Below are positions 3,462-4,562 of a DNA stretch of 32,000 bases, piece after piece. Origin of the DNA: Candidatus Saccharimonadota bacterium (GTDB lineage Bacteria; Patescibacteriota; Saccharimonadia; Saccharimonadales; Saccharimonadaceae); NCBI GenBank assembly GCA_023898645.1, contig CP060232.1:630001-662000 (forward strand), given 5' to 3'. A model generated the notes under the pieces. The model ran no database searches. It was not told the DNA's origin and saw only the letters and a list, made by a program, of their open reading frames with translations. The position numbers and the translations under genes were made by a program. Positions within the stretch are counted from its first letter, which is position 1. Each line of letters begins with the position of its first letter.

Positions 3462-4562
3462 ATGGGAACTTTCCGCAGCGCGGAACCTCTCTCTCTCTCT
3501 CTCTCTCTCTCTCTCTCTCTCTCTCTCTCTCTCTCTCTCTCTCTCTCTCTCTCTCTCTCTCTCGATAGCCACGCTCAAACCAACCCTCTCAAAGTAATAA
3601 TTACAGACATTGTATCTATTAAAGCATTGTCAGCCGCATGGCGGAAGTTCTCGCGAGGTAAAAAATCGAGAAAAGATGTGGCCTTGTACCAAAAGTATCT
3701 TCAAAAAAATCTCACTGACCTACACGCGCCGCTTTCATCTGGTCTCTACAGACATCAGTCCTACCAACGATTCACCATTCATGACCCAAAACAACGCCAA
3801 ATACATAAAGCAACGGTGGCCGATAGAATCGTACACCAGGCAGTCGTTACGGCTATCGAGCCGCTCTTCGAGAGGCGATTTATATATGACAGCTACTCCT
3901 GTCGTGTCAATAAAGGTGCTCATGCTGGTGTACTGCGCCTGAAAACTTTTCTTGCCGGTACAAGCAAAAATGACACAAAAGGAGCATATGCGCTCAAGTG
4001 TGATGTACGAAAATACTTTGCCTCAATCGACCATGAAATATTATTGGGCCTTATTGCTCGCCACATCCAAGATGATGCAACATTGGAACTGATACGAACG
4101 ATTATTCTGAGCTATGGTCCCGAAACTGGTAAAGGCATACCGCTCGGCAATATTAGCAGCCAGTTGTTTGCGAACATATATCTCCATGAGTTGGATTGGT
4201 TCATGAAACAAACCCTTGGCGTTAAGCAATATATTCGCTATTGCGATGATTTCGTGATTGTCTCATCGGACAGAGCATATCTCGAAAGCCTCATCACACC
4301 CATCCGCAATTTTCTAAAAACCGAACTACAACTTGATTTGCATCCATCAAAAGTGTCGATTCGATCATGGAGACAAGGTGTAGATTTTCTTGGCTACGTC
4401 CTACTGCCACACGCTACCGTGGTTCGCACAAAAACGCAAAAGAGAGTACATTCAAAAGTTAATGCCGCCAACTACTCGTCTTACCTTGGAGTATGTTCCC
4501 ACGCAAATGCCTACAGACTCTCGCAAACTATACGTAACGTAGTTTGGGCTGACAACTTATAG
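3462..4562 (+). CDS. DGR reverse transcriptase
   Basis: RT motifs are SYSCRVNKGAHAG, the DGR hallmark IPLGNISSQLFANIYL ([ILV]GxxxSQ) and YIRYCDDFVIV (YxDD). The N-terminal IVSIKALSAAWRKFSRGKK resembles Brt ITTWENLWDAYRKTSHGKR (from memory). The start is uncertain: ATG 3462 is the only canonical start upstream of the conserved core, and using it requires reading through the CT tract. The next in-frame TTG at 3627 would truncate the core. Confidence 0.9.
   Translation: MGTFRSAEPLSLSLSLSLSLSLSLSLSLSLSLSLDSHAQTNPLKVIITDIVSIKALSAAWRKFSRGKKSRKDVALYQKYLQKNLTDLHAPLSSGLYRHQSYQRFTIHDPKQRQIHKATVADRIVHQAVVTAIEPLFERRFIYDSYSCRVNKGAHAGVLRLKTFLAGTSKNDTKGAYALKCDVRKYFASIDHEILLGLIARHIQDDATLELIRTIILSYGPETGKGIPLGNISSQLFANIYLHELDWFMKQTLGVKQYIRYCDDFVIVSSDRAYLESLITPIRNFLKTELQLDLHPSKVSIRSWRQGVDFLGYVLLPHATVVRTKTQKRVHSKVNAANYSSYLGVCSHANAYRLSQTIRNVVWADNL
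3487..3563. repeat. (CT)38 dinucleotide microsatellite, a 77-nt perfect polypyrimidine/polypurine tract
   Basis: Counted from the sequence: ct units run from 3487 to 3562, plus c at 3563. On the + strand it reads (LS)n, in frame between ATG 3462 and the RT core. On the - strand it reads (ER)n, in frame with avd. Confidence 0.95.

Follow-up and report, generated by a model that had tools for sequence, protein, structure and literature searches.

The stretch of DNA analysed here, 32,000 nucleotides of contig CP060232.1 (assembly GCA_023898645.1, forward strand, positions 630,001 to 662,000) from a Candidatus Saccharimonadota bacterium of the Saccharimonadaceae, is called the window throughout, and coordinates refer to it. 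It holds a complete diversity-generating retroelement (DGR) with a reverse transcriptase (RT), the accessory variability determinant Avd, a template repeat (TR) and a variable repeat (VR). A perfect array of CT dinucleotides lies at the junction of avd and RT, which are transcribed away from each other and whose 5' coding ends appear to overlap there on opposite strands. On the sequence evidence we lean towards regarding this tract as a simple-sequence contingency switch on DGR activity. The broader proposition, that a single repeat in an antisense overlap forms a three-state heritable DGR switch which is ancient and widespread in Patescibacteria, its motif having been exchanged between CT and G, is put forward more tentatively, as possible rather than probable.

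Results

The tract and its immediate surroundings

A first-pass annotation of the same DNA had reported a perfect 77-nt CT tract at 3487-3563. Tandem Repeats Finder returned the same array as (CT)38.5, with period 2, 100% matches and a score of 154, and found no second repeat of this kind within the 32-kb window. The tract contains no stop codon in any frame on either strand. Its 38.5 perfect units, together with the tracts of relatives described below, correspond to the perfect repeat of hypermutable length that characterizes contingency loci. All tract lengths are assembly-derived, and the exact length of a 77-nt perfect repeat needs reads to verify. The elements around the tract are as follows.

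3487 to 3563, no strand assigned: (CT)38.5 simple-sequence repeat, reading (GA)n on the minus strand and situated where the avd and RT 5' ends overlap
3128 to 3486, minus strand: avd body (four-helix bundle), stop codon at 3128-3130
3564 to 4562, plus strand: RT downstream of the tract, including the stop codon (RVT_1, E=5e-20)
3576 to 3578, minus strand: TTG, likely avd start, homologous to the conserved ATG of relatives; a GTG at 3572-3570 is in the same frame
3584 to 3590, minus strand: GAGAGGG, Shine-Dalgarno-like box 5 nt upstream of TTG 3578
3443 to 3445, plus strand: GTG, likely conserved RT start, complement of the Avd His codon in YHLY
3428 to 3433, plus strand: AAAGGA, Shine-Dalgarno-like box 9 nt upstream of GTG 3443
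3462 to 3464, plus strand: ATG named as RT start in the first-pass annotation, in frame with RT at 77 nt, with no Shine-Dalgarno-like box

The repeat keeps its position in related loci

We compared 160 related loci from genomes and metagenomes, anchored on the conserved Trp of the RT. Repeats were counted in 811 kb of these loci as G/C runs of at least 8 or as at least 5 dinucleotide units. Within 200 nt before the RT anchor there were 54 such repeats, versus 12 in the remaining ~780 kb. The comparison with related DGRs, proposed in the first-pass annotation, thus placed a CT or poly-G repeat at the same junction. All close relatives (67-96% RT identity) carry (CT)n at exactly the same place, with lengths of 11-51 nt. 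The CT motif belongs to the Saccharimonadaceae clade, and more distant Patescibacteria have G6-G11 instead. The tracts compared were:

Window: 77 nt CT
L001 and L082: 47 nt CT
L081: 45 nt CT
L083: 33 nt CT
L002: 29 nt CT
L003: 25 nt CT
L006 and L014: 23 nt CT
L085: 21 nt CT
L087: 19 nt CT
L005: 15 nt CT
L004 and L089: 11 nt CT
Relatives at 38-74% RT identity: homopolymer G6-G11
L008, L091 and P0190: interrupted (decayed) tract
Clade at ~40% RT identity: no repeat

The RTs of L007, a poly-G locus, and of L006, a CT locus, are each 74% identical to the window RT. Since the two are equally distant from it, the motif appears to have been exchanged while the position was kept. Sequencing artefact was considered as a source of the poly-G runs and rejected, because the runs are internal, fixed in position and found in many independent projects.

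These comparative data bear on the suggestion that the tract has no function at all, being either an assembly artefact or the slippage-prone scar of a decaying DGR. A 77-nt perfect repeat is indeed hard to assemble exactly, and avd is out of frame in the window. However, dozens of assemblies made independently in different projects have a tract at this position, which largely refutes the explanation; the RT, Avd, TR and VR are intact, the TR/VR differences are adenine-specific, and the flanks of the tract are conserved. We consider it very improbable.

Poly-G runs were also seen farther from the RT in some distant loci. In a Micrarchaeia metagenome-assembled genome (MAG; JBAZHM010000046.1, L032:215-225) a coding-strand G11 splits an Avd-like open reading frame (ORF), ~2.8 kb upstream of the DGR RT, into two frames; its downstream part gives a weak 23S_rRNA_IVP match (E=1.5e-4, below the Pfam cut-off). 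Here a DPANN archaeon may have acquired a repeat within avd independently. Runs of G23 (L041:1330-1352), G11 (L045:1399-1409) and G15 (L049:621-635) in Acidimicrobiaceae and Planctomycetota MAGs lie upstream of signal-peptide ORFs. These ORFs are candidate target genes and are found 1.3-2.4 kb ahead of the DGR RT; the G runs of L041 and L045 are followed by a TTGACA-like box. All three runs may be promoter-level repeats or two-colour sequencing artefacts.

Tract length varies between otherwise identical contigs

Five groups of contigs with 100% identical flanks (400 nt each side) differ solely in the tract:

L001, 47 nt versus L081, 45 nt
L087, 19 nt versus L085, L086 and L094, 21 nt
L093, G10 versus L092, G9
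L109, G9 versus L106, G8
L117, G9 versus L116, G8

The earlier suggestion that the tract is a hypermutable repeat at a site where it could affect DGR expression agrees with these length differences. Sister assemblies of a single strain have tracts of 45, 47 and 51 nt, and RT clusters at 90% identity include gene calls from (LS)1.5 to (LS)4.5, in all three frame classes. In-frame and out-of-frame alleles therefore occur among otherwise identical genomes, as is typical of contingency loci. Frame-class frequencies were not accepted as proof of selection for an ON state, because the classes are roughly equal.

We determined the offset of the upstream avd start from the avd body in 42 distinct loci. 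It was +1 in 22 loci, the window among them, and +2 in 7, and the start was in frame in 13. A start codon 4 nt before the G run, in an offset frame, was seen in an Uhrbacteria-like subclade.

The preponderance of the +1 class raises the question of programmed recoding, in which RNA polymerase slippage or ribosomal +1/-2 slippage would yield a low amount of in-frame Avd, and of RT, from any tract length. Slippage on poly-C or (GA)n would then set a low Avd dose, not a heritable ON/OFF state. CCC_C +1 sites and homopolymer transcriptional slippage are known, and the C9-C11 runs and dinucleotide repeats found here permit re-pairing after slippage. As in prfB, dnaX and insertion sequence (IS) elements, a slippery run parts the start codon from an out-of-frame body. 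Recoding sites of this kind are normally fixed, however, with a constant run and a constant shifted frame, whereas our loci show offsets of 0, 1 and 2 and many lengths, with all three frames represented among near-identical strains. In-frame alleles are common, and the +1 excess is uncorrected for relatedness. We judge recoding to be improbable as the explanation of the tract; it could coexist with phase variation.

The avd frame across the tract

The first-pass annotation had placed the tract exactly between the divergently oriented avd and RT. A minus-strand avd is borne out by a match of its product to bAvd (PF22296, E=5e-17, profile positions 6-106), but avd probably does not lie outside the tract: of the two genes it is the one that most clearly appears to be read through it, likely from TTG 3578. 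On the minus strand the avd frame continues across the tract, read as (RE)n, until a stop at 3575-3577 closes it, and the bAvd match attains profile position 6 only when the ORF is extended to ~3484. Upstream of TTG 3418 the frame has no canonical start. TTG 3418 itself was rejected as avd start, as it would cost ~17 bAvd profile positions (helix 1 truncated) and L003 lacks it. Third-position changes that are synonymous in the avd frame reach upstream of the internal TTG that would be a possible alternative start.

Starts beyond the tract are conserved in relatives, where a minus-strand start is kept 7-25 nt past the repeat. Members of the repeat-free clade have a head-to-head, codon-aligned overlap of the avd ATG with the RT ATG in ATGAGTAGTATTGTTCAT, and their Avd begins MNNTTHNDFSKLEIPVV. 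The same avd ATG (CAT on the plus strand) lies 7-25 nt past the G run in the poly-G clade and gives proteins of the form M-x5-8-PPP..., called for at least 13 database Avds. The start homologous to TTG 3578 is an ATG in L006 and L088 of the CT clade, for which database Avds include MSVAIERERERERGSALRKVPIV, MSAAI(ER)5ESIPQF and MSGSIERESTPALRK. Altogether, the gene models of at least 20 database Avds run through (ER)n or PPP. With its decayed tract, L008 has avd in frame as MNSTVSPRKPPVQFQNVPII. Genomes like L006 contain no canonical avd start after the tract, and their out-of-frame members are called as a 74-aa fragment only. Leaving the tract aside, the N-terminal tail of Avd would comprise 11 residues, versus 13 in the repeat-free clade. 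With the tract at 77 nt, a shift of 1 nt separates TTG 3578 from the frame of the avd body. The GAGAGGG box ahead of this TTG resembles other ribosome-binding sites of the genome.

An alternative is that the tract is an untranslated leader or spacer, with avd and RT starting at non-canonical codons downstream of it and with a length that is neutral or tunes the efficiency of transcription or translation. For avd this start would be CTG 3478, with the GAGG at the tract end as ribosome-binding site; GAGGT and 6 nt precede it (GAGG-N7-CTG). CTG 3478 was rejected as a conserved start for avd, since the L005, L006 and L014 lineages have CTC in its place and lack any downstream start. An untranslated spacer also leaves unexplained the conserved distal ATG on the minus strand and the Avds called through the tract. 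We return to this alternative with the RT.

The RT frame across the tract

Read from ATG 3462, the RT frame gives MGTFRSAEP(LS)12L-DSHAQTNPLKVIITDIVSIKALSAAW. As the first-pass annotation stated, this frame has no ATG, GTG or TTG from the tract to TTG 3627. That TTG encodes the Leu of DIxSIKAL, a motif conserved throughout the family, and stands 4 codons ahead of the conserved Trp; the conserved N-terminal motif of the RT, DIVSIKALSAAW, begins near 3606. Because the DIxSIKAL motif must be translated, RT initiation has to lie upstream of it. The same absence extends to the CT clade, which has no canonical start between the tract and the N-terminal motif. In relatives poor in repeats the RT starts just after the avd ATG, with GTG in L008 (MLTDITDITSIKAL), GTG in L011 and TTG in L012; the codon homologous to that start is GTA, GTA, GTT or TTA in the CT clade and never a start.

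ATG 3462 had been taken for the only canonical start of the RT. This cannot be upheld, since the conserved start is GTG 3443, in another frame. A second plus-strand ORF (3443-3568) runs from this GTG across the tract; its frame matches that of the RT at tract lengths of 73 or 79 nt, but not at 77 nt. Gene calls for related RTs show two alternative N-terminal extensions (MGTFRSAEP... and MVDATDNGNF...) as well as truncated models, and homologues that begin MVDATDNGNF... use the equivalent of GTG 3443. The AAAGGA box ahead of it is formed by the Avd codons TCC-TTT of the SFH motif. The Ser codon of this motif is TCC in 19/20 lineages, versus 18% of Ser codons overall, and the conserved AAAGGA sits 8-9 nt upstream of an NTG made by the Avd His/Gln codon. 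Similar Shine-Dalgarno-like boxes precede other genes of the window. We rejected ATG 3462 as a conserved RT start: its presence hinges on an Avd CCC-ATT codon pair, L083 and L005 have ATA instead, and no such box precedes it.

Avoidance of antisense stops was counted in 14 lineages with <70% Avd identity. TTA, CTA and TCA, which are stops in the RT-direction frame, account for 0/32 Leu/Ser codons in the first 13 avd codons after the tract, versus 25% (94/370) elsewhere in avd (binomial P = 8e-5). A at the third position (A3) is mildly depleted across all codons of this segment (18% vs 29%), with a conservative P of ~4e-3. These statistics are not fully corrected for phylogeny. The earlier view that the RT is translated through the tract can thus be kept in part: the plus-strand frame upstream seems to be kept open by selection, and RT translation probably crosses the tract, giving (LS)n, but likely from GTG 3443 and not from ATG 3462.

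For the untranslated spacer, the RT would have to start at ATA or ATT at 3597-3602. The RT N-terminus does contain a conserved ATT codon, canonical starts follow the tract in some poly-G relatives, and the evenly populated frame classes would fit. Yet antisense stops are avoided and the AAAGGA box is conserved upstream of the tract, and a neutral repeat should decay whereas nearly all tracts are perfect over deep divergence. Together with the evidence from avd, this makes a spacer unlikely in our estimation.

Promoter spacing and DNA structure

The first-pass annotation had also raised the ideas that the tract alters promoter spacing for both genes or forms H-DNA. Neither fits tracts that range over 11-77 nt in close relatives, are replaced by short G runs and have no flanking promoter hexamers. 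A scan of 2600-4700 for sigma-70 promoters and terminators found no promoter near the tract, and a terminator-like hairpin after the target gene only. The precedent for such control is Haemophilus influenzae hifA/hifB, where (TA)n in overlapping divergent promoters acts by the spacing of -35 and -10. Like our tract, that is a dinucleotide repeat between divergent genes; it co-controls both, as is proposed here. A promoter-spacer repeat of the hif type needs ~16-18 nt between -35 and -10, however, and was rejected here; the 11-77 nt lengths and the lack of flanking hexamers favour a reading-frame mechanism.

Frame states of the two genes

The avd and RT ORFs are codon-aligned in antisense: CAA 3576-3578 is a codon of the RT frame and CAC 3443-3445 a codon of the avd frame. 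Therefore, whenever the tract length joins TTG 3578 to the avd body without a frameshift, GTG 3443 is joined to the RT in the same way. To test the frame states by unit number, the tract was edited in silico, with the following results.

36 or 39 CT units: RT from GTG 3443 full (371 or 373 aa), ATG 3462 abortive, Avd full (148 or 150 aa)
35, 38 or 41 CT units: GTG 3443 abortive, RT from ATG 3462 (366 aa at 38 units), Avd abortive (39-43 aa; 41 aa at 38 units)
37 or 40 CT units: GTG 3443, ATG 3462 and Avd from TTG 3578 all abortive

These results agree with the earlier reasoning that one 2-nt unit causes a frameshift and that three units restore the frame. With 38 units and avd out of frame, the assembled window is probably in an OFF state, one unit from ON.

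We hypothesize that the tract is a hypermutable repeat embedded in the antisense overlap of the avd and RT 5' coding ends. Avd would be translated from TTG 3578 on the minus strand, with an N-terminal (ER)n tail supplied by the tract, and the RT from GTG 3443 on the plus strand, with the tract read as (LS)n. Slipped-strand mispairing would add or remove 2-nt units and shift both frames together. At lengths of 1 mod 3 (36 or 39 units) both Avd and RT would be made and the DGR would be ON. At lengths of 2 mod 3 (38 units, as in the window) the RT would be possible only from the non-conserved ATG 3462, and Avd would be lost. At lengths of 0 mod 3 neither protein would be made. In the Bordetella phage BPP-1 model cDNA synthesis needs Avd, so two of the three states would shut off adenine mutagenesis in a heritable yet reversible manner. 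The sequences themselves show the tract, its conserved position and polymorphic length, the frame arithmetic, and conserved flanking starts, with alternative starts absent in some relatives; the start codons used, the switching within populations and the control of DGR activity are inferences.

The DGR locus and its neighbours

That the locus is a complete DGR follows from a DGR-type RT, a TR/VR pair differing at TR adenines, a VR at the 3' end of the target ORF, and Avd. In addition to avd and the RT, its parts are:

1877 to 2647, plus strand: DGR target gene, 256 aa, no Pfam match, 59% GC
2529 to 2645, plus strand: VR, at the 3' end of the target gene
2766 to 2783: terminator-like hairpin downstream of the target gene
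3023 to 3139, plus strand: TR, its 3' end overlapping the avd stop codon on the opposite strand

TR and VR form a 117-nt repeat pair with 86% identity, and the VR ends 2 nt ahead of the stop codon of the target gene. TR adenines are the site of 16/17 core TR/VR mismatches; the DGR has therefore been active. We found 4055 RT homologues, the best ones from Saccharimonadales, and thousands of them have a DGR-type N-terminus and adjoining Avd genes. An exact-protein look-up of the 366-aa RT ORF gave no record, and an Rfam search over the whole window gave no match. Gene order and orientation, with TR upstream, avd on the reverse strand and then the RT, correspond to architecture B3, TR-(avd)-RT. 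In Wu et al. 2018 (PMC5758913), B3 makes up 90% of the set from the candidate phyla radiation (CPR).

The ~59% GC of the target gene stands against ~45% in the surrounding genome region. Inside the TR, positions 3078-3114 form a 12-nt tandem pattern, GAATGACAACTG, in 3 copies with 72% matches, a run of adenine-rich and mostly AAC-containing codons; AAC-type codons are typical for DGR templates. A TR transcript running on toward the RT would be antisense to all of avd and would carry (CU)n.

Directly upstream of the target gene, at 209-1732, lies an ORF for a VirD4/TraG-like type IV coupling ATPase (TrwB_AAD_bind, TraG-D_C), and the DGR may be on or beside a conjugative or type-IV-related module. 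A small HAD-like ORF (4589-4987, weak HAD_SAK_2 match) and a PLD-like ORF (5491-6096) are downstream of the RT; both also follow the RT in L161, and neither does so in the L166-L170 species. The remaining window is ordinary chromosome, including genes for ribosomal protein L1, a histidine kinase and an MFS transporter.

Discussion

A contingency switch would account for a repeat that keeps its position and changes its length, but several observations weigh against it. The starts are predicted from sequence, and the sigma-70 scan was empty. Lengths come from assemblies and not from reads, and short-read assemblies can misjudge repeats, above all at 77 nt. Frame classes are roughly equal among strains, and a neutral untranslated repeat would look alike. 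The switch does not account for the +1 excess (22/42 loci, relatedness uncorrected). TTG starts are weak, and in the few poly-G loci inspected by eye the avd ATG had no apparent Shine-Dalgarno-like box ahead of it. In some poly-G loci (L008, L011, L012) canonical RT starts lie just downstream of the tract, and in some an in-frame TTG lies 8-12 codons into avd. Expression may thus bypass the tract in some poly-G loci, and the switch may be leaky or avd-specific.

The proposed switch has much in common with the contingency genes of Neisseria, Campylobacter and Haemophilus. There, too, a perfect repeat of hypermutable length is found close to where an ORF begins, and near-identical strains carry ON and OFF alleles, predicted ones in our case. 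The repeat encodes, as it would here, an N-terminal segment that tolerates changes in length. The poly-G tracts of hmbR and hpuAB are an example of translational phase variation (PMC3786947), and a survey is available (PMC2831843). Our case differs in that one repeat lies in two divergent ORFs with a codon-aligned antisense overlap and in that the controlled function would be a targeted hypermutation machine. The hosts are Patescibacteria, and switching in them is a prediction. What would be new relative to known translational contingency loci is a repeat common to two antisense-overlapping ORFs, the control of a DGR, and the conservation across Patescibacteria.

Among known DGRs, that of Bordetella phage BPP-1 (avd-TR-brt) and the B3 elements of CPR bacteria share with the window the RT, Avd, TR, VR and adenine-specific mutagenesis. 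The BPP-1 genes are co-oriented, unlike the divergent avd and RT of the window, and we know of no repeat tract in that DGR. The first-pass annotation knew of no description of repeat control of a DGR either, and our full-text literature searches likewise gave no description of repeats in DGRs. Nor did a term search of the main text of Wu et al. 2018 (PMC5758913) find mention of a repeat tract in DGRs.

Practical consequences follow for annotation and for metagenomics. The tract explains the erratic N-termini and truncated models that gene callers produce for these RTs and Avds, and DGR activity cannot be deduced from gene presence alone. Under the proposed switch, tract length modulo 3 should predict VR heterogeneity, which makes the hypothesis testable in existing metagenomes.

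What holds DGR mutagenesis in check is an open question, since newly useful target variants would be lost if adenine mutagenesis never ceased. CPR organisms are reportedly especially rich in DGRs, and a repeat-length switch on avd and RT would, if confirmed, be a simple answer for these bacteria. Most cells would keep the present receptor variant, while a small and ever-renewed subpopulation diversifies. Phase variation would gain a new design, in which a single repeat serves two antisense-overlapping frames, and organisms with few classical regulators would possess a stochastic regulator of their evolvability.

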